Positions 1 through 5,126 of a stretch of DNA of 5,126 nt are shown here, piece by piece (position 1 is the first letter of the stretch; every line of letters begins with the position of its first letter). A program made the position numbers and the translations under genes. The notes beneath the pieces were generated by a model. That model was not told the origin of the DNA. It saw only the letters and a list, made by a program, of their open reading frames with translations, and ran no database searches. This stretch comes from a virus. Its lineage: Duplodnaviria > Heunggongvirae > Uroviricota > Caudoviricetes. The stretch is from positions 1 to 5,126 of the IMG/VR virus record IMGVR_UViG_2778261416_000005; one strand, given 5' to 3'.

Positions 1-708
1 TTACCAACTATGAGACGACCAGAATACTCTGCCAATAATCCTTACGGTTTCATGAAATTCATCTCTATCCATTACTTCATCCGGGTACTCTTCGCGATTT
101 ATTGATCTGATTATCACCGATGTAGGGGTGGCGATTAATGTTTTTACTCGTAACAAATCAGACTGGCAAATAGCGTAGGTTTTACCATCTCTGATTGTGG
201 TATCTTGCGTGTTAACACCAACAACATCGCCATCGTGAAGCGTTGGTTCCATGCTTTGCCCTACAACCCTAACTAGCTTGGCTGATCTTTCTGATACTCC
301 CATCTTTTTCAGATAGTGCTTTCTGAAAACCAAAGAGAACTCCGATGATTCCTCTAGCTCGCAGCTACCGCTTCCAGCTGAAAGCGAAACGTTAAGAAGA
401 GGCAACGCAACAAACTCGTCATCGTTTCTTTTAATGTCTTCCCATACCACAGCTTTTAAAGATGACTCACGGACATTGGATGGTTCTTCATGTGCACCAT
501 CCCTCATTTCACCAATACCAGAACTAAGCCATTCAGGGCGCACTTTTAAAGCATTGGCTAATTCAACCATCTTGCGAGATCCGTTTGTTTTACCGGACGA
601 CATCTTCTGTATGGCTGGCTGAGATATTCCAACCATGTCAGCAAGCTGTGATTGTGATACCCCTGCCGAGCTCATGGCTGCATTTAGTCTTTCTGCGAAT
701 GTTTTCAT
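1..708 (-). CDS. cI-like prophage repressor (N-terminal HTH, C-terminal S24/LexA-type autopeptidase domain)
   Basis: Translation shows an HTH segment (QSQLADMVGISQPAIQKM), a putative Ala-Gly cleavage site (LSAGSG), and S24 catalytic motifs (Ser in GQSMEP, Lys in RVKTL). Stop codon is at 1-3. The track ORF 1..738 begins with TTG; the first ATG is at 706-708 and a GTG at 712-714. The ATG start is preferred because the upstream operator palindromes begin at 721. Confidence 0.85.
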   Translation of the reverse strand: MKTFAERLNAAMSSAGVSQSQLADMVGISQPAIQKMSSGKTNGSRKMVELANALKVRPEWLSSGIGEMRDGAHEEPSNVRESSLKAVVWEDIKRNDDEFVALPLLNVSLSAGSGSCELEESSEFSLVFRKHYLKKMGVSERSAKLVRVVGQSMEPTLHDGDVVGVNTQDTTIRDGKTYAICQSDLLRVKTLIATPTSVIIRSINREEYPDEVMDRDEFHETVRIIGRVFWSSHSW

Positions 709-720
709 ACCCACAAATCT

Positions 721-783
721 ATAACTACGGTTATCCAAAGTAAAATAACAAAGGTTATTGCTATTTTTTATAACTTGAGTTAT
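721..783. promoter_or_regulatory. Tripartite operator array (OR-like) in the divergent cI/cro promoter region
   Basis: Three 14-bp sites with perfect inverted half-sites ATAAC-N4-GTTAT at 721-734, 745-758 and 770-783, centres 24 and 25 bp apart. They lie between the divergent repressor and cro-like genes. A possible PR -10 (TATAAG, 791-796) and an SD (AAGAGG, 807-812) precede the cro ATG. Confidence 0.55.
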
Positions 784-819
784 CTTTGGTTATAAGTAAT
801 GACCACAAGAGGTATGCTC

Positions 820-1044
820 ATGAATTTAGTAATTCAACGAGCCTTGAAAATTGTCGGTAGCCAAAAGCGCCTTGCCGACAAGTGTGGTGTAACGCAGCCA
901 GCAGTACACAAATGGCTGAAAGGCGGGTTGGTCTCTCCAGAGAAAGTTACCGCCATCGTTAACGCCACTGGAGGGCAGATCAAGGCTTACGAAATTCGCC
1001 CCGATTTGCCACACCTGTTTCCAAAACCGAATCAGGCAGCATAA
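820..1044 (+). CDS. Cro-like HTH regulator (Cro/YdaS-type small DNA-binding protein)
   Basis: A 74-aa ORF divergent from the repressor. SD AAGAGG at 807-812 sits 7 nt before ATG 820; in-frame ATGs at 799 and 814 lack a usable SD. Small basic protein with an HTH-like segment (GVTQPAVHKWLKGG). Stop TAA at 1042-1044. Confidence 0.75.
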   Translation: MNLVIQRALKIVGSQKRLADKCGVTQPAVHKWLKGGLVSPEKVTAIVNATGGQIKAYEIRPDLPHLFPKPNQAA

Positions 1045-1051
1045 GTAACAC

Positions 1052-1097
1052 CGCTCTTTAACAGTCATGGTCTTCATTCCCGCCGAAATGCGGGAAT
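1052..1097 (+). promoter_or_regulatory. nutR-like site: boxA (CGCTCTTTA) plus boxB-like hairpin
   Basis: boxA-like CGCTCTTTA at 1052-1060 follows the cro stop. An 8-bp perfect stem ATTCCCGC/GCGGGAAT (1076-1083 with 1090-1097) encloses a CGAAAT loop, which is GNRA-like. Position between cro and cII matches lambdoid nutR. Confidence 0.5.
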
Positions 1098-1102
1098 ACA
1101 AC

Positions 1103-1137
1103 GCGCATAAGTTGATGCGCATAACTTCTTATTTGTT
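1103..1137 (+). terminator. Candidate tR1-like hairpin upstream of cII
   Basis: Perfect 6-bp stem GCGCAT/ATGCGC (1103-1108 with 1115-1120) followed by a T-rich but interrupted tract ATAACTTCTTATTTGTT. Weak as an intrinsic terminator; lambda tR1 is Rho-dependent. Confidence 0.25.
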
Positions 1138-1180
1138 AAGGAAATACTTACATATGGTTCGTGCAAACAAACGCAACGAG
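1137..1180 (-). promoter_or_regulatory. PRE-like CII-activated promoter (TTGC-N6-TTGC boxes inside the cII 5' end)
   Basis: On the minus strand, TTGCGTTTGTTTGC lies at 1163-1176 (codons 3-8 of cII) and AAGTAT is the -10 at 1144-1149. This matches the lambda PRE architecture as I recall it. Confidence 0.6.
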
Positions 1181-1447
1181 GCTCTACGAATCGAGAGTGC
1201 GTTGCTTAACAAAATCGCAATGCTTGGAACTGAGAAGACAGCGGAAGCTGTGGGAGTTGATAAGTCGCAGATCAGCAGGTGGAAGAGGGACTGGATTCCA
1301 AAGTTCTCAATGCTGCTTGCTGTTCTTGAATGGGGTGTCGTTGACGACGACATGGCTCGATTAGCACGACAAGTTGCTTCGATTCTCACCAATAAAAAAC
1401 GCCCGGCGGCAACCGAGCGTTCTGATCAAATACAAATGGAATTTTAA
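1154..1447 (+). CDS. cII: CII transcriptional activator, near-identical to phage lambda CII
   Basis: A 97-aa protein MVRANKRNEALRIESALLNKIAMLGTEKTAEAVGVDKSQISRWKRDWIPKFSMLLAVLEWGVVDDDMARLARQVASILTNKKRPAATERSDQIQMEF, matching lambda CII from memory with about two substitutions. The upstream sequence TAAGGAAATACTTACAT ATG is also lambda-like. The track ORF 1067..1447 is an unsupported upstream extension. Confidence 0.92.
   Translation: MVRANKRNEALRIESALLNKIAMLGTEKTAEAVGVDKSQISRWKRDWIPKFSMLLAVLEWGVVDDDMARLARQVASILTNKKRPAATERSDQIQMEF
1391..1420 (-). terminator. Intrinsic terminator of the oop-like RNA
   Basis: On the minus strand, a 7-bp stem CGCUCGG/CCGGGCG (one G-U pair) with a 6-nt loop is followed by UUUUUUAUU (plus-strand A-tract at 1391-1399). 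Confidence 0.6.
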
Positions 1448-1458
1448 CAACATCCAAC
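1391..1458 (-). ncRNA. oop: oop-like antisense RNA overlapping the cII 3' end
   Basis: The minus strand reads ...CAGAACGCTCGGTTGCCGCCGGGCGTTTTTTATT, matching the 3' half of lambda OOP RNA as recalled. A perfect TATAAT -10 on the minus strand at 1465-1470 overlaps the next gene's start codon, as pO does in lambda. The 5' end is approximate. Confidence 0.55.
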
Positions 1459-1469
1459 GAGGTAATTAT

Positions 1470-1661
1470 ATGCGAAACAAAGGCTTTAATCCACCTGATA
1501 CACACAAAGAAGCTAAGCGTTTGCGCTTCCTTCGTTCCATTGATGAAAGAACTCAAATCTCTTTTGTGAAAGTTGCCAGAACTGAGCTTCTTAAGGCTGA
1601 GGCGAGGGCGTTGCTCCCGTCTCTATCCGCACAACGCAGATGGACGGTCTGTTGGCAATGA
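1470..1661 (+). CDS. Hypothetical protein (63 aa) at the position normally occupied by replication gene O
   Basis: SD GAGG at 1459-1462 sits 7 nt before ATG 1470, just after the cII stop. No family recognised. The track ORF 1374..1661 is the same frame extended upstream into cII. May be the N-terminal part of a frameshifted gene continuing in the 1573..1914 frame. Confidence 0.45.
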
Positions 1662-1914
1662 AGCAAATGGTAATTATCGATGGTACGACTACTGCAATAA
1701 CCCCGTCGATGCATGGCCGATTATTGATGACAACGAAATAGCGTTAATCCCATCAAACGACTTTGGTTGGGTTGCTATAAGTGGTTTGATGTTAAATGGC
1801 TGTTCTTCGTACATTGATCAACGTCTTGATGGTTGTTTTCAGCATAGTGATACAAACCCACTCCGCGCCGCCATGATCGTATTTCTCATGATGCAGGACG
1901 CCAATAATGCTTAG
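1573..1914 (+). CDS. Hypothetical protein, start unresolved (open frame without an ATG until 1789; possible frameshifted gene or pseudogene)
   Basis: Long open frame with protein-like composition (…[42 protein letters not shown]…). It opens with TTG and has no SD. An ATG at 1658 overlaps the stop of the preceding ORF (ATGA) but is in a third frame that closes at 1741. By position this could be a YbcN/NinE-type nin protein, but I cannot confirm it. Confidence 0.3.
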
Positions 1915-2083
1915 CCCATCCCAATCCATTCAATACCAGAAAGAAAGCGTCGAGCGGGCTTTAACGTGCGCTAACTGCGGTCAGAAGCTGCATGTGCTGG
2001 AAGTTCACGTGTGTGAGCACTGCTGCGCAGAACTGATGAGCGATCCGAATAGCTCAATGTACGAGGAAGAAGACGATGAATGA
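1907..2083 (+). CDS. ninF: NinF-like small Cys-rich (zinc-ribbon-like) nin-region protein, 58 aa
   Basis: Manual translation gives [58 protein letters not shown], with CxxC and CxxHCC motifs and an acidic tail. SD CAGGA lies 8 nt before the ATG. The start overlaps the upstream stop (ATG 1907, TAG 1912-1914) and the stop overlaps the antirepressor start by 8 nt. Absent from the ORF track because of length. NinF assignment is from memory of the lambda nin region. Confidence 0.6.
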
Positions 2084-2798
2084 GTTAATAAATGGCAATG
2101 CCATCAAAATGACAAGCATTGAAATCGCTGAGTTGGTGGGTAAGCGTCATGACAATGTGAAACGTACCATCGAAACGCTGGCTAAAAATGGTGTTATCCG
2201 GCTTCCTCAAATTGAGGTTTCCGAAAGAATCAATAACTTAGGGTTCAATGTTCAGTACGAGCATTACGTCTTCGAAGGCGAACAAGGTAAGCGAGATAGT
2301 ATTGTTGTTGTTGCCCAGTTGTCGCCAGAGTTCACCGCTCGCCTTGTTGACCGCTGGCGAGATCTTGAAGAAGCTGCGGTTAATATCCCCAAAACGCTAC
2401 CGGAAGCGTTGCGCCTTGCTGCTGATCTTGCTGAGCAGAAAATGCAACTGGAAAACCAGCTTGCAATTGCCGCACCTAAAGTTGAGTTTGCCGATCGCGT
2501 TGGCGAGGCCAGCGGAATTTTGATTGGAAACTTTGCAAAGGTTGTCGGTATTGGTCCAAACAAACTGTTTGCGTGGATGCGCGATCACAAAATCCTTATT
2601 GCTTCAGGTTCCCGGCGCAATGTGCCAATGCAGGAATATATGGATCGCGGCTATTTCACAGTGAAAGAAACAGCGGTCAACACAAATCACGGAATACAGA
2701 TATCGTTCACCACAAAAATCACCGGGCGTGGTCAACAGTGGCTGACCAGAAAGCTGCTCGATAACGGAATGCTGAAAGTAACAGGGGAGGCTGCTTAA
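2076..2798 (+). CDS. Phage regulatory protein Rha with C-terminal KilAC/ANT antirepressor domain
   Basis: A 240-aa ORF. The N-terminus (MTSIEIAELVGKRHDNVKRTIETLAKNG … LVDRW) fits the Rha domain. The C-terminus (FADRVGEASGILIGNFAKVVGIGPNKLFAWMRDHKILI … QEYMDRGYFTVKE) fits the KilAC/ANT domain. SD GAGGA lies 8 nt before ATG 2076. Confidence 0.88.
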   Translation: MNELINGNAIKMTSIEIAELVGKRHDNVKRTIETLAKNGVIRLPQIEVSERINNLGFNVQYEHYVFEGEQGKRDSIVVVAQLSPEFTARLVDRWRDLEEAAVNIPKTLPEALRLAADLAEQKMQLENQLAIAAPKVEFADRVGEASGILIGNFAKVVGIGPNKLFAWMRDHKILIASGSRRNVPMQEYMDRGYFTVKETAVNTNHGIQISFTTKITGRGQQWLTRKLLDNGMLKVTGEAA

Positions 2799-3088
2799 TG
2801 GCTAATCTACGCAAAGAAGCACGCGGCAGAGAATGCCAGGTACGTATTTACGGCGTATGCAATGGTAATCCTGAAACTACAGTTCTGGCACATTACCGGA
2901 TGGCTGGAATTTGCGGAACGGGAATGAAGCCTGACGACCTGATCGGCGCATGGGCTTGTAGCGCGTGTCACGATGAAATCGACCGACGCACCCATAATCT
3001 CGACAACAAAGACGCCAGACTTTACCACCTCGAAGGCGTGATCAGGACGCAGGCGATACTACTGAAGGAGGGGAAGATTAAGCCATGA
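2798..3088 (+). CDS. ybcO: YbcO-like DUF1364 protein (Cys/His-rich putative nuclease of lambdoid nin regions)
   Basis: A 96-aa ORF, MANLRKEARGRECQVRIYGVCNGNPETTVLAHYR…CSACHDEIDRRTH, resembling DLP12 YbcO as recalled. SD GGGGAGG lies 7 nt upstream; TAATG overlap with the antirepressor stop. Confidence 0.85.
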   Translation: MANLRKEARGRECQVRIYGVCNGNPETTVLAHYRMAGICGTGMKPDDLIGAWACSACHDEIDRRTHNLDNKDARLYHLEGVIRTQAILLKEGKIKP

Positions 3089-3447
3089 ACGAATATCAGT
3101 TTGTGCTTCCATACCCGCCGTCGGTGAATACCTACTGGCGAAGACGGGGAAGCCAATACTACATCAGCGATAAAGGCCAGAAATACCGAAAAGACGTTCA
3201 GCAAATCATCCGCCAACTTAAGTTAGACATTTTCACCAAATCACGACTCCGCATCAAAGTAATCGCAGACGTTCCGGACTCCCGCCGCCGCGACCTCGAC
3301 AACATCCTGAAAGGTTTACTCGACTCCCTTATCCACGCCGGATTTGCGGAAGACGACGAGCAATTCGATGACATTCGCGTAATTCGTGGTGTGAAAGTAC
3401 CAGGTGGAAGGCTTGGAATAAAAATCACCGAACTGGAGAACGCATGA
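3085..3447 (+). CDS. rusA: RusA Holliday junction resolvase (crossover junction endodeoxyribonuclease)
   Basis: A 120-aa ORF with RusA hallmarks (LPYPPSVNTYW…, PDSRRRDLDNILKGLLDSL…, GGRLGIKITE). SD AAGGAGGGG upstream; ATGA overlap with the ybcO stop. Confidence 0.9.
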   Translation: MNEYQFVLPYPPSVNTYWRRRGSQYYISDKGQKYRKDVQQIIRQLKLDIFTKSRLRIKVIADVPDSRRRDLDNILKGLLDSLIHAGFAEDDEQFDDIRVIRGVKVPGGRLGIKITELENA

Positions 3448-3632
3448 ACGCCACAATTCAAACGATACCAGAGCTTCTTATCCAGACACGAGGCAATCAG
3501 ACCGAAGTGGCAAGGATGCTTTCCTGCGCAAGAGGAACAGTGCTCAAGTACAACCGAGACAGCAAAGGCGAGCGTCACGTAATAGTTAACGGCGTCCTGA
3601 TGGTCAAACAGGGCAAAAGGGGAAGGCCATGA
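3444..3632 (+). CDS. ninH: NinH-like protein
   Basis: A 62-aa ORF, TIPELLIQTRGNQTEVARMLSCARGTVLKYNRDSKGERHVIVNGVLMV, matching lambda NinH (TIPDMLVEAYGNQTEVARRLKCSRGTVRKY…). ATGA overlap with the rusA stop. Confidence 0.85.
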   Translation: MNATIQTIPELLIQTRGNQTEVARMLSCARGTVLKYNRDSKGERHVIVNGVLMVKQGKRGRP

Positions 3633-3802
3633 GACTCGAAAGCGTAGCTAAATTTCATTCGCCAAAAAGCCCGATGATGAGCGACTCACCACGGGCTACG
3701 GCTTCTGACTCTCTTTCCGGTACTGATGTGATGGCTGCTATGGGGATGGCGCAATCACAAGCCGGATTCGGAATGGCTGCATTCTGCGGTACAGGGACAT
3801 AA
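3629..3802 (+). pseudogene. Q: Truncated late antiterminator Q (lambda-type N-terminal ~53 codons only)
   Basis: Manual translation from ATG 3629 (ATGA overlap with the ninH stop) gives MRLESVAKFHSPKSPMMSDSPRATASDSLSGTDVMAAMGMAQSQAGFGMAAFCG, then TGT and stop. This matches the lambda Q N-terminus as recalled, which continues KHELSQ… after FCG. Homology ends at about 3790. Confidence 0.75.
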
Positions 3803-3882
3803 AGATACAGGCCATTACCATCGAGAAGGCGGTATGGTTTTTCTTTCGGCTTTGCTGCTTCAATCTGCTTAACGGTGAGCAT
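3790..3882 (-). pseudogene. Integrase N-terminal fragment (P4/IntS-type arm-binding region, ~31 codons) truncated at a deletion junction
   Basis: Minus-strand translation from ATG 3882 gives MLTVKQIEAAKPKEKPYRLLDGNGLYLYVPV, a typical N-terminus of tRNA-associated P4-family integrases. Beyond about 3790 the reading frame is antisense Q sequence (…PQNAAIPNPACDC…). The track ORF 3655..3918 is this chimera with a GTG-start extension. Confidence 0.65.
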
Positions 3883-4043
3883 GGGTAAAAATCCGGTGGG
3901 TAAAATTATTTTATCCACTTTTTACCCGTCATGGAGTGCGGCTGTCAACGATCTGACGCGAACCATTACGAACTGTGAATCTACGGAAGTCTTGATATTC
4001 AGGGGATTTTGCGGACTGGTACGGATGGGAGCGAACTGATAAA

Positions 4044-4118
4044 TGGTGTCCCCTGCAGGAATCGAACCTGCAATTAGCCCTTAGGAGGGGCTCGTTATAT
4101 CCATTTAACTAAGAGGAC
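4044..4118 (-). tRNA. argW: tRNA-Arg (anticodon CCU)
   Basis: The 75-nt minus-strand sequence GTCCTCTTAGTTAAATGGATATAACGAGCCCCTCCTAAGGGCTAATTGCAGGTTCGATTCCTGCAGGGGACACCA has a 7-bp acceptor stem, an anticodon loop CUCCUAA and a terminal CCA. It matches E. coli argW as recalled. Confidence 0.95.
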
Positions 4119-4193
4119 AATGCGGCATGAGTATACCCGCTAATGGAGTGCGGGGTAAGTACGCTGCCGCTCGATTGCTTAAACCCTCGCCAT

Positions 4194-5126
4194 TTATGCC
4201 GGGTTTTTATAATTTTTCTTAATGTTTTCCGCACGTTCTGCTTTTTGGCGTGCTTCTGCTTTACGCTTATTGCTCATGTCGTTACGAATCTGTGCATGAC
4301 TCATTAACGCGAAGATAAAGGTGCCGCCGCAGATGTTCCCCGCTAAAGTAGGTAGTGCGAAGGGCCAGATGAAATCGCTCCAGTGCAGCGTACCGTTAAA
4401 CACCAGATAGAGGATTTCAACAGAACCGACCACGATATGGGTGGTGTCACCCAGGGCAATAAGCCAGGTCATCAATATAATCACCACAATCTTTGCCGCA
4501 CCCGCTGCAGGAAACATCCAAACCATAGTGGCGATCAGCCAGCCGGAAATGATCGCGTTGGCAAACATCTCGCTGGGGGTGTTCTTCATCACATCCATGC
4601 CGATTTTGACAAATGCATCGCGAGTTTCTTCATTGAAGATAGGCATATATTCAAATGCCCACGCCGCAATACCTGTCCCGAGAATATTACCCAGCAGCAC
4701 GACGCCCCATAACCGTATAAGTAAGCCGACGTTGCTCATTGTCGGTTTTTGCATGACGGGTAGTACCGCAGTCACGGTATTTTCGGTAAATAATTGCTGG
4801 CGGGCCATAATGACGATAATAAAACCAAAGGTATAACCGAGATTCTCCAGCAAGAAGCTGCCCGGCACACCTTCCAGTTCGACTTGAAATATCCCTTTTG
4901 CCAGTAACGAAGCGCCCATCGACAGACCCGCCGCAATGGCTGACCACAGTAGCGCCATTGCGTCGCGTTCCAGCTCTTTTTCACCATCCTGGCGGATATG
5001 CTCATGAATTGCCATCGCCCGGGAGGGGAGTCGGTCTTCATCTATTTCTATTTTTTTGCCGCGCTCTTTTTCTTCGCTCTCAACTTCAATTTCGTCGCTG
5101 TGTTGATCAATTTTGTCGTTGTCCAT
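4194..5126 (-). CDS. yfdC: Formate/nitrite transporter (FNT) family inner-membrane protein YfdC
   Basis: A 310-aa ORF with multiple hydrophobic transmembrane segments and acidic/basic termini, consistent with E. coli YfdC, which neighbours argW. The ATG sits exactly at the window end (5124-5126); stop at 4194-4196. Confidence 0.9.
   Translation of the reverse strand: MDNDKIDQHSDEIEVESEEKERGKKIEIDEDRLPSRAMAIHEHIRQDGEKELERDAMALLWSAIAAGLSMGASLLAKGIFQVELEGVPGSFLLENLGYTFGFIIVIMARQQLFTENTVTAVLPVMQKPTMSNVGLLIRLWGVVLLGNILGTGIAAWAFEYMPIFNEETRDAFVKIGMDVMKNTPSEMFANAIISGWLIATMVWMFPAAGAAKIVVIILMTWLIALGDTTHIVVGSVEILYLVFNGTLHWSDFIWPFALPTLAGNICGGTFIFALMSHAQIRNDMSNKRKAEARQKAERAENIKKNYKNPA

Follow-up and report, generated by a model that had tools for sequence, protein, structure and literature searches.

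Results

A Lambdoid Prophage Remnant at argW

The locus of the analyzed window (the entire 5,126-nt stretch, positions 1–5,126 of IMG/VR record IMGVR_UViG_2778261416_000005) is a 4.58-kb lambdoid remnant, which a comparison with K-12 places at argW of Escherichia coli. The remnant has taken the place of intS from codon ~31 onward, of the cryptic prophage CPS-53, of dsdC, and of the beginning of dsdX, ending within its 5′ half; similarity to K-12 picks up again in dsdX at one end and at intS codon 30/argW at the opposite end, and the element adjoins argW (tRNA-Arg CCU, 4047–4118, minus strand) and yfdC. It retains, in order, nutL, a 98-aa ORF, cI, cro, nutR, cII, a truncated ORF of the phrog_2519 family, a truncated ninX, ninF, a KilAC antirepressor gene, ybcO, rusA, ninH, and the first ~55 codons of Q. 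Gone from the remnant are N, the replication genes (at the junction 1624/1625), most of Q, and all lysis and structural genes, and the reading frames of cI, cro, and cII are intact (Table 1). The 63-aa ORF made by the deletion is found as an exact protein in three assemblies of different sources, among seven contigs on record. The window is 100% identical in all three assemblies, including GCA_002521955.1 (contig NOSF01000020.1), and 100% identical to L009; none of the complete E. coli genomes in the collection holds ≥80% of the window.

Table 1. Positions of the features within the window (strand given where assigned).
Feature	Position	Strand	Evidence and remarks
Heterologous CI repressor, 235 aa, HTH_3 and Peptidase_S24 domains	1–708	−	Pfam Peptidase_S24 1e-17, HTH_3 8e-7
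Three operators, ATAAC-N4-GTTAT, between cI and cro	721–734, 745–758, 770–783		Motif matches
Heterologous cro, 74 aa, YdaS/P22_Cro-like	820–1044	+	Pfam YdaS_toxin 1e-17, P22_Cro 1e-5
Non-lambda nutR	1053–1120	+	boxA CGCTCTTTAA 1053–1062; boxB hairpin 1077–1096; second hairpin 1103–1120
Inferred PRE −10 (AAGTAT, 1149→1144) and start (~1137)	1137–1149	−	−35 of phage 434 plus 17-bp spacer; sequence identical to lambda
Lambda-type cII block	1137–1447	+	Leader and Shine-Dalgarno site 1137–1153; cII ORF 1154–1447
Predicted CII binding site, TTGC-N6-TTGC, around PRE −35	1163–1176	−	TTGCGTTTGTTTGC, identical to lambda 38369–38382
Putative oop-like antisense RNA, ~65 nt, non-lambda 5′ third	1394–1458	−	Based on TATAAT and lambda OOP architecture
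oop (tO) terminator hairpin, within the cII 3′ coding region	1396–1423	−	12-bp stem, then TTTTTTATT (T run)
Candidate pO-type −10, TATAAT	1465–1470	−	Overlaps A1470, first base of the downstream ATG (1470–1472)
Downstream non-lambda ORF, phrog_2519 family	1470–1661	+	Truncated by deletion at 1624/1625

Immunity Region, nutR, and Downstream ORF

The genes on either side of cII belong to families other than those of lambda. The window CI shares 23% identity with lambda CI, and a BLASTP comparison of the window Cro with lambda Cro yielded no alignment. Over positions 1–1157, the window is 99.65% identical at the DNA level to the Stx1a-converting phage Stx1a_10051. The operator motif, which is unlike the lambda OR sites, has three matches vs. 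0.17 expected, a count reached in none of 200 shuffles. The boxB hairpin of nutR (CCCGC-CGAAAT-GCGGG) is also unlike lambda boxB; this nutR matches nutL of CUS-3, ETEC1730, and Stx1a_10051 and the source contig’s own nutL at 84%, and the fold of the nutR region has a z-score of −4.05. On the right, the full-length 90-aa form of the downstream ORF present in ETEC1730 matches phrog_2519 (function unknown) at 2e-57; the deletion that truncates the ORF in the window is delimited by similarity to ETEC1730/CUS-3, which stops at 1625, and by similarity to BEN2908 ninX, which begins at 1624.

Extent and Edges of the Lambda-Type Block

An earlier sequence-only reading had described cII, its leader, the PRE boxes, and the oop terminator as near-identical to lambda, with edges near 1136 and 1440–1447, and a direct comparison confirms this description on both counts. 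A blastn search at word size 9, with NC_001416 (the complete lambda genome) as subject, aligned window 1137–1443 with lambda 38343–38649 at 97.07% identity over 307 nt (9 mismatches, 0 gaps, E 7e-147); megablast against the phage collection delimited the same block, and a global alignment of window 700–1900 with lambda 37940–39300 gave the same pattern as blastn. In an ungapped register, the identity to lambda per 20-nt bin amounts to 2–8/20 to the left of 1137, 17–20/20 at 1137–1436, and 5–11/20 from 1437. Both edges of the block are thus sharp, since the bin identities jump at 1137 and past 1436: the left edge lies at 1136|1137 and the right edge at ~1443–1447, at the cII stop codon (1445–1447). 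Outside the block, blastn against the lambda genome found no similarity in 1–1136 or in 1448–1940, in agreement with the claim that the upstream cro and nut site, as well as the downstream gene, differ from those of lambda. A uniform moderate divergence from lambda over 700–1900 was looked for and is not what the alignments display, the edges being abrupt, and the observation of a near-lambda block therefore stands. Two more lambda-like islands are present elsewhere in the window, at 1941–2078 (ninF, 97.1%) and at 3619–3791 (end of ninI and start of Q, 97.7%).

CII, Its Predicted Binding Site, and PRE

The cII ORF encodes a 97-aa protein, 95 residues of which are as in lambda CII (the changes are A76S and E91D); relative to lambda, 8/10 substitutions in cII sense codons are synonymous. 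The protein matches the Pfam profile PF05269 (Phage_CII) with 161.7 bits (cut-off 21.3; E 5e-48), with residues 1–90 aligned to profile positions 1–90 of 91. For cII, the correct call is this 97-aa ORF rather than an extended one of 126 aa.

The predicted CII binding site is located 10–23 nt into cII, inside the 118 nt that are perfectly identical to lambda. By itself the TTGC-N6-TTGC motif is not significant (0.69 expected per window), and the weight of this assignment therefore comes from position and context. Indeed, in GenBank, phage 434 has its PRE −35 annotated at the counterparts of 1167–1172 and its CII site at those of 1163–1176, and the record of HK633 places PRE at bases equivalent to 1142–1176, with a CII site annotated at the equivalent bases as well. 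Since a literature search yielded no published coordinate for the PRE +1, we infer the start from the −35 annotation of 434 and canonical spacing, and PRE activity and CII binding from identity to lambda. So placed, the PRE start would fall on the left homology edge, within a nucleotide or two, and the block would then carry the whole core promoter and none of the transcribed leader.

A strict scan for sigma-70 promoters called none in 650–1700, PR included, and its stringency makes it uninformative for both PRE and pO; for PRE, the lack of a call is expected because this promoter is activator-dependent. On the minus strand, a terminator scan detected no terminator-like site from 1137 down to 708, where cI starts; a PRE transcript could thus extend into the heterologous cI, its presumed target. 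The whole window contains one TTGC-N6-TTGY site only. The lambda PaQ and PI CII boxes were not found in the window, as these sites were lost by deletion in the remnant: the Q fragment stops at a point corresponding to lambda 44048, before the lambda PaQ box (44173–44186) is reached, and the int fragment at the locus is intS, which is unrelated to the int that PI precedes.

The oop Terminator and a Putative Antisense RNA

In lambda, the OOP RNA is antisense to cII, with its pppG 5′ end at 38675 and its distal 31 nt forming the tO stem-loop; the pO −10 includes 38684–38688 and overlaps the start codon of O, and a lambda/P22 hybrid with a junction inside pO has been described (PMC3349717). The terminator part of this arrangement is fully preserved in the window (30/30 identical to lambda over 1396–1425) and is kept in 13/14 aligned phages, with Min27 differing in the loop. 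The block, however, includes only the part of oop that overlaps cII, namely, the terminator and the 3′ two-thirds. The spacer between cII and the next gene is 22 nt in the window vs. 32 nt in lambda, and the two sequences are unrelated; the window therefore lacks both the −35 of lambda pO and the initial ~22 nt of OOP. The features that define lambda OOP (a pO of the form TTGAGT-17-CATAAT and a 77-nt RNA starting GUUGAUAGAUCC with a 5′ stem-loop) are thus not those of the window. An Rfam scan of the whole window at E up to 1 returned tRNA-Arg(CCU) and a chance plastid match, with no match to an oop family, a result that counts neither in favor of oop nor against it. The term “oop cassette” is accordingly an overstatement: the terminator is present, but pO and the initial ~22 nt of the RNA have been replaced.

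What occupies the place of pO is a candidate promoter element. The TATAAT read from 1470 to 1465 is a perfect hexamer at the position equivalent to the lambda pO −10, and CATAAT or TATAAT occurs at this position in 14/14 aligned phages, which carry at least four different downstream genes. The case for this candidate pO is weak, as its −35 is poor (TGGATT) and the strict promoter scan did not call it. Conservation of the −10-like hexamer could also reflect translation signals, because the hexamer coincides in part with the sequences at which translation of the next gene begins (its ribosome-binding site and start codon). An oop-like RNA of ~65 nt, running from ~1458 to 1394 as judged from lambda identity and canonical spacing, would fold into the terminator hairpin and a weak 5′ hairpin (−21 kcal/mol, z −3.3). 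The strong 5′ stem of lambda OOP is lost in the window, where both arms are lost or mutated. Among the 14 phages the arms of this stem occur in all four combinations (the mixed cases being Kapi1 and Nord122), so that the stem is without covariation support.

Composite Structure of the Block

The block is not homogeneous in its relation to lambda. Mismatches number 0/118 (100% identity) over 1137–1254 and 2/226 (99.1%) over 1137–1362, vs. 9/85 (89.4%) over 1363–1447, and six of them fall within the last 22 nt of cII (1426–1447; 72.7%). By Fisher’s test, the distribution is uneven both for 1137–1362 vs. 1363–1447 (p = 2e-4) and for 1137–1425 vs. 1426–1447 (p = 2e-5). In an alignment of 11 sequences, the 3′ variants T1426, A1432, A1435, A1441, T1444, and A1446 mostly go with the right flank (CUS-3, TL-2011a, and ETEC1730 type), Nord122 and Kapi1 being mixed cases. 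Because of this association, the crossover from the lambda-type cII core to the right-hand module would most likely lie inside the invariant terminator stretch at ~1385–1425 and not at the stop codon.

The 3′ end of the gene also travels on its own. In TL-2011a, Kapi1, and many Stx2a phages, segment 1385–1447 (63 nt) forms a separate island, at 97–99% identity, on a second cII type that is far more divergent, and it is found at about 85% on Salmonella P22-like phages. At the protein level, the tail LTNKKRPAATERS(E/D)QIQMEF is common to TL-2011a, Kapi1, the Stx2a and Salmonella phages, and the window CII. A conserved C-terminal tail on an otherwise divergent CII has been described for phage epsilon34 (PMC2629481).

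Recurrent Junctions and Related Phages

Comparison with the phage and E. coli genome collections revealed a limited set of recurring junctions, at 1036–1054, 1137, 1157, 1385–1391, 1440–1447, and 1469–1477, which combine at least three cII types with at least four downstream gene types. At 1036–1054, matches start in CUS-3, JEP4, and HF4s; at 1137, they start in lambda, 434, HK633, SfI, and many E. coli prophages, including those of O157 strains; and at 1385–1391, they start in TL-2011a, Kapi1, Stx2a phages, and Salmonella P22-like phages. Conversely, matches end at 1157 in Stx1a_10051 and O26 STEC prophages (1–1157 at 99.65–99.7%, followed by a third cII type) and at 1440–1443 in prophages with other replication modules (SRY149, Nord122). 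A 611-nt query (987–1597) has a partial match in 1520/5426 complete E. coli genomes, of which 133 hold at least 80% of it. The possibility that the 1–1625 arrangement is unique to the source genome was checked in the E. coli genomes and rejected, as the whole of 1–1625 is present at 99.0–99.4% in at least 14 complete E. coli genomes. The prophage of ETEC1730, in which 1–1625 (including cI and cro) is matched at 99.4%, has N, a replication protein, a DnaB-type helicase, nin genes, and Q.

A comparison with individual systems shows how the same parts are combined in different ways. The lambda cII-PRE-oop region (NC_001416, 38343–38653) is identical to the window in the cII leader with its Shine-Dalgarno site, in the TTGC-N6-TTGC box and putative PRE −10, and in the terminator hairpin. 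The differences concern the upstream parts (tR1, nutR, cro, the operators, and cI), which show no or only a distant relationship to their counterparts in the window, as well as pO, the 5′-most ~22 nt of OOP, and gene O, none of which the window has. Phages 434 and HK633 share this cII block, including its left breakpoint at 1137 (98.0% and 98.4% identity, respectively), but have other immunity regions and, to the right, a lambda-type oop and pO; SfI carries the same cII block too. CUS-3, JEP4, Gally, and HF4s share a contiguous nutR, cII, and phrog_2519 ORF (1036–1625, about 98%), with CUS-3 differing in its cI and cro. Both the CUS-3 group and the ETEC1730 type possess N and have replication genes downstream of the ORF, whereas the window ORF is cut at 1625 and joined to ninX. 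TL-2011a, Kapi1, and Stx2a phages resemble the window in the cII 3′ end, terminator, and downstream ORF (1385–1625, 97–99%), and the Salmonella epsilon34-like phages in the cII 3′ end with the oop terminator and in the CII tail; in all of these, the N-terminal 75–78 residues of CII align poorly with the lambda-type protein.

Discussion

The observed identities, boundaries, motifs, and junction distribution, together with the remnant status of the element, are best explained if 1137–1447 is, as we hold with high confidence, a lambda-type allele of the lambdoid cII/PRE/oop-terminator module, residing in a mosaic early-right operon whose immunity region and downstream gene are of other allele families. 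In the ancestral phage, the PR transcript would have read through nutR into cII, and CII tetramers would have bound the minus-strand TTGC-N6-TTGC site (1163–1176) and activated PRE (−10 and start at ~1149–1137); the resulting leftward transcript would have run antisense through cro and then expressed the heterologous cI, and an oop-like antisense RNA ending at the conserved terminator (1396–1423) would have limited cII expression. The edges of the block (1136|1137 and ~1443–1447) and the seams at 1157 and ~1385 recur as recombination junctions among lambdoid phages, and the arrangement was inherited as a whole from a prophage type common in E. coli.

The modular (mosaic) exchange proposed in the sequence-only reading is supported by the sharpness of the edges as well as by the recurrence of the same junctions in phages and prophages with different flanking modules. 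Its further proposal, that a lambda-type CII would drive establishment of a heterologous repressor, has to be divided. As a reading of the architecture it is right, because the flanks are heterologous and no terminator-like site intervenes on the minus strand; at the present locus it fails, and it would apply to the ancestral phage only. Since N, the replication genes, most of Q, and the lysis and structural genes are missing, establishment of lysogeny would have been a property of the ancestor and not of the locus. In the absence of N, cII may never be expressed in the remnant, and the module, as part of a decayed 4.58-kb element, is best regarded as a fossil.

Why cI, cro, and cII have remained intact with all else deleted could be explained by selection, with the remnant being kept for CI immunity against superinfection by Stx1a/O26-type phages and the cII module being a mere passenger. 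We regard this scenario as unlikely. It draws on the intactness of the three genes, on the near-identity of the immunity region (99.65%) to that of an Stx1a-converting phage, and on the finding of an identical remnant in three assemblies of different sources, among the seven contigs on record. The three sequenced copies are, however, 100% identical and may thus be one recent clone, there is no signal of selection, and no complete E. coli genome in the collection holds ≥80% of the window.

A much less probable explanation of the sharp-edged block invokes purifying selection on a vertically inherited cII, with faster-diverging flanks and no recombination. The overlap of cII, PRE, and the oop terminator on both strands does create functional constraint, and the predominance of synonymous changes in cII (8/10) is of the kind that such selection would leave; nevertheless, synonymous sites within the block are also about 97% conserved, and at 1136|1137 the identity drops from 20/20 to 7/20 within one 20-nt bin, the flanks being unalignable rather than just diverged. 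Moreover, Stx1a_10051 combines this immunity region with another cII type (switching at 1157), and TL-2011a and Kapi1 combine the right flank with yet another cII type (switching at ~1385), so that the left flank, cII core, and right flank are incongruent in the present data. Recombination is required, since cII types and flanks reassort combinatorially.

The least probable of all is that lambda DNA was recently inserted, or copied by gene conversion, into an otherwise unrelated prophage at this one locus of the source strain, which would account for two sharp edges against lambda and for the perfect identity of the first 118 nt, but is opposed by the presence of the same block with both flanks (1–1625) in at least 14 complete E. 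coli genomes and with the right flank also in CUS-3, JEP4, and HF4s, by the closer match of HK633 (98.4%) and 434 (98.0%) than of lambda (97.1%) to the window, and by a cII 3′ end that has the haplotype of the right-hand module and not that of lambda. The notion of a “lambda-derived cassette” put into this locus is accordingly dismissed, given that 1–1625 exists at 99.4% in E. coli prophages and the block itself in 434, HK633, and SfI. Because HK633 and 434 are closer to the block than lambda, “lambda-derived” is a label of convenience; as judged from these comparisons, lambda is one carrier of an allele common to the lambdoid gene pool and not its specific donor.

Returning to the mosaic reading, an allele of a shared lambdoid module, the 3′ portion of the module deserves separate consideration. 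The tail and terminator (1385–1447), which occur with at least two very divergent types of cII gene and at least four downstream genes, may constitute a free-standing, broadly conserved recombination linker, with a right flank of CUS-3/Stx2-type encoding a ~65-nt OOP variant under its own promoter, a tentative suggestion on which we remain somewhat more doubtful than convinced. If true, the short OOP variant would be antisense to the cII 3′ terminus as well as to the ribosome-binding site with which the phrog_2519 gene begins.

Overall, the occurrence of a lambda-type cII in non-lambda surroundings is ordinary and already known lambdoid gene shuffling. The combination of a lambda-type cII/PRE with a non-lambda repressor and operators has been familiar since the imm434 hybrids and occurs in numerous sequenced phages and prophages; the classical examples of a non-lambda immunity region served by a lambda-type cII are phages 434 and HK633, along with the lambda imm434 hybrids. 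As for the remnant itself, its intact CI might still give immunity to Stx1a-type phages of the same immunity group. The value of the present analysis is mainly in a correct annotation of the locus, where the lambda-like segment is not evidence of a lambda prophage, and in providing a clean example of lambdoid mosaicism.

Structure and occurrence of the argW remnant

The locus at argW is a lambdoid prophage remnant of 4.58 kb, which replaces K-12 intS (from codon ~31), the cryptic prophage CPS-53, dsdC and the 5' half of dsdX. The same sequence is present, identical throughout, in three assemblies (NCBI GCA_002521955.1, Logan ERR7366494 and ENA ERZ27318585). Among the complete E. coli genomes of the collection searched, none contains 80% or more of the window.

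At the internal deletion, which removed the replication genes and ninB/ninE, the phrog_2519 ORF (90 aa in the related prophage of E. coli ETEC1730) breaks off near codon 52, and the sequence resumes near codon 27 of ninX in a different reading frame, resulting in a chimeric 63-aa ORF (window 1470–1661). The Q antiterminator ends early, after ~55 codons; its lambda-like sequence stops at window 3791 (equivalent to lambda 44048). Truncated Q abuts, in head-on fusion, the initial 92 nt of intS, a CPS-53-type integrase gene (minus strand, 3882 to 3791). Missing from the remnant are the lysis genes, the structural genes and the site of PaQ, the CII-dependent promoter inside lambda Q.

Features of the remnant and its surroundings
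Feature	Window	Strand	Description
Remnant			source contig L009 7744–12321
Whole window	1–5126		L009 8532–13657
Operators	721–783		three 14-bp palindromes, ATAAC-N4-GTTAT, between cI and cro
nutR	1053–1120		boxA CGCTCTTTAA, boxB CCCGC-CGAAAT-GCGGG (range extends over second hairpin)
126-aa ORF	1067–1447		in-frame upstream extension of cII through boxB
Second hairpin	1103–1120		GCGCAT-AAGTTG-ATGCGC
-10-like hexamer	1465–1472	minus	overlaps start codon of downstream gene (range covers both)
Deletion junction	1624–1625		phrog_2519/ninX
Truncated Q and intS fragment	3629–3882

Mosaicism and the cII module

Besides the cII/PRE/oop-terminator module, lambda-like islands are observed at ninF (window 1941–2078; 97.1%) and across the end of ninI and the start of Q (3619–3791; 97.7%), both set among non-lambda nin-region genes; this is the same patchwork as that at cII. 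For cII itself, a 97-aa product starting at 1154 is backed by RefSeq and by lambda, and the longer 126-aa call, a form also annotated in the GenBank record of CUS-3, is probably an annotation artefact.

Downstream of cII, a -10-like hexamer on the minus strand (CATAAT or TATAAT) lies over the start codon of the next gene in all 14 aligned phages (the window and 13 others), among which at least four unrelated genes occupy this position. The hexamer could represent a conserved pO, the oop promoter of lambda, or merely a common context of ribosome-binding site plus ATG.

The enterobacterial cII/oop region is also matched by two phage-collection records, "Campylobacter phage CJLB-4" (48,361 bp), in which the cII block is identical to that of lambda, and "Staphylococcus phage SA 1298 Kay" (2,692 bp); both are probably mislabelled or contaminated entries.

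Immunity region

The three operators, spaced 24–25 bp apart, belong to a different family from those of lambda, and their count was reached in none of 200 shuffles. The source contig carries a nutL counterpart to nutR on the left side of cI (L009 7868–7909), and the N gene, the would-be user of both sites, is deleted from the remnant. The second hairpin, which has no canonical T run, may be a candidate tR1 equivalent.

The immunity region (cI, operators, cro and nutR; window 1–1157) shares 99.65% identity with the Stx1a-converting phage Stx1a_10051 and 99.7% with prophages found in O26 STEC strains. Shiga-toxin phages of this kind might be excluded by immunity from the remnant, provided that its cI is expressed.
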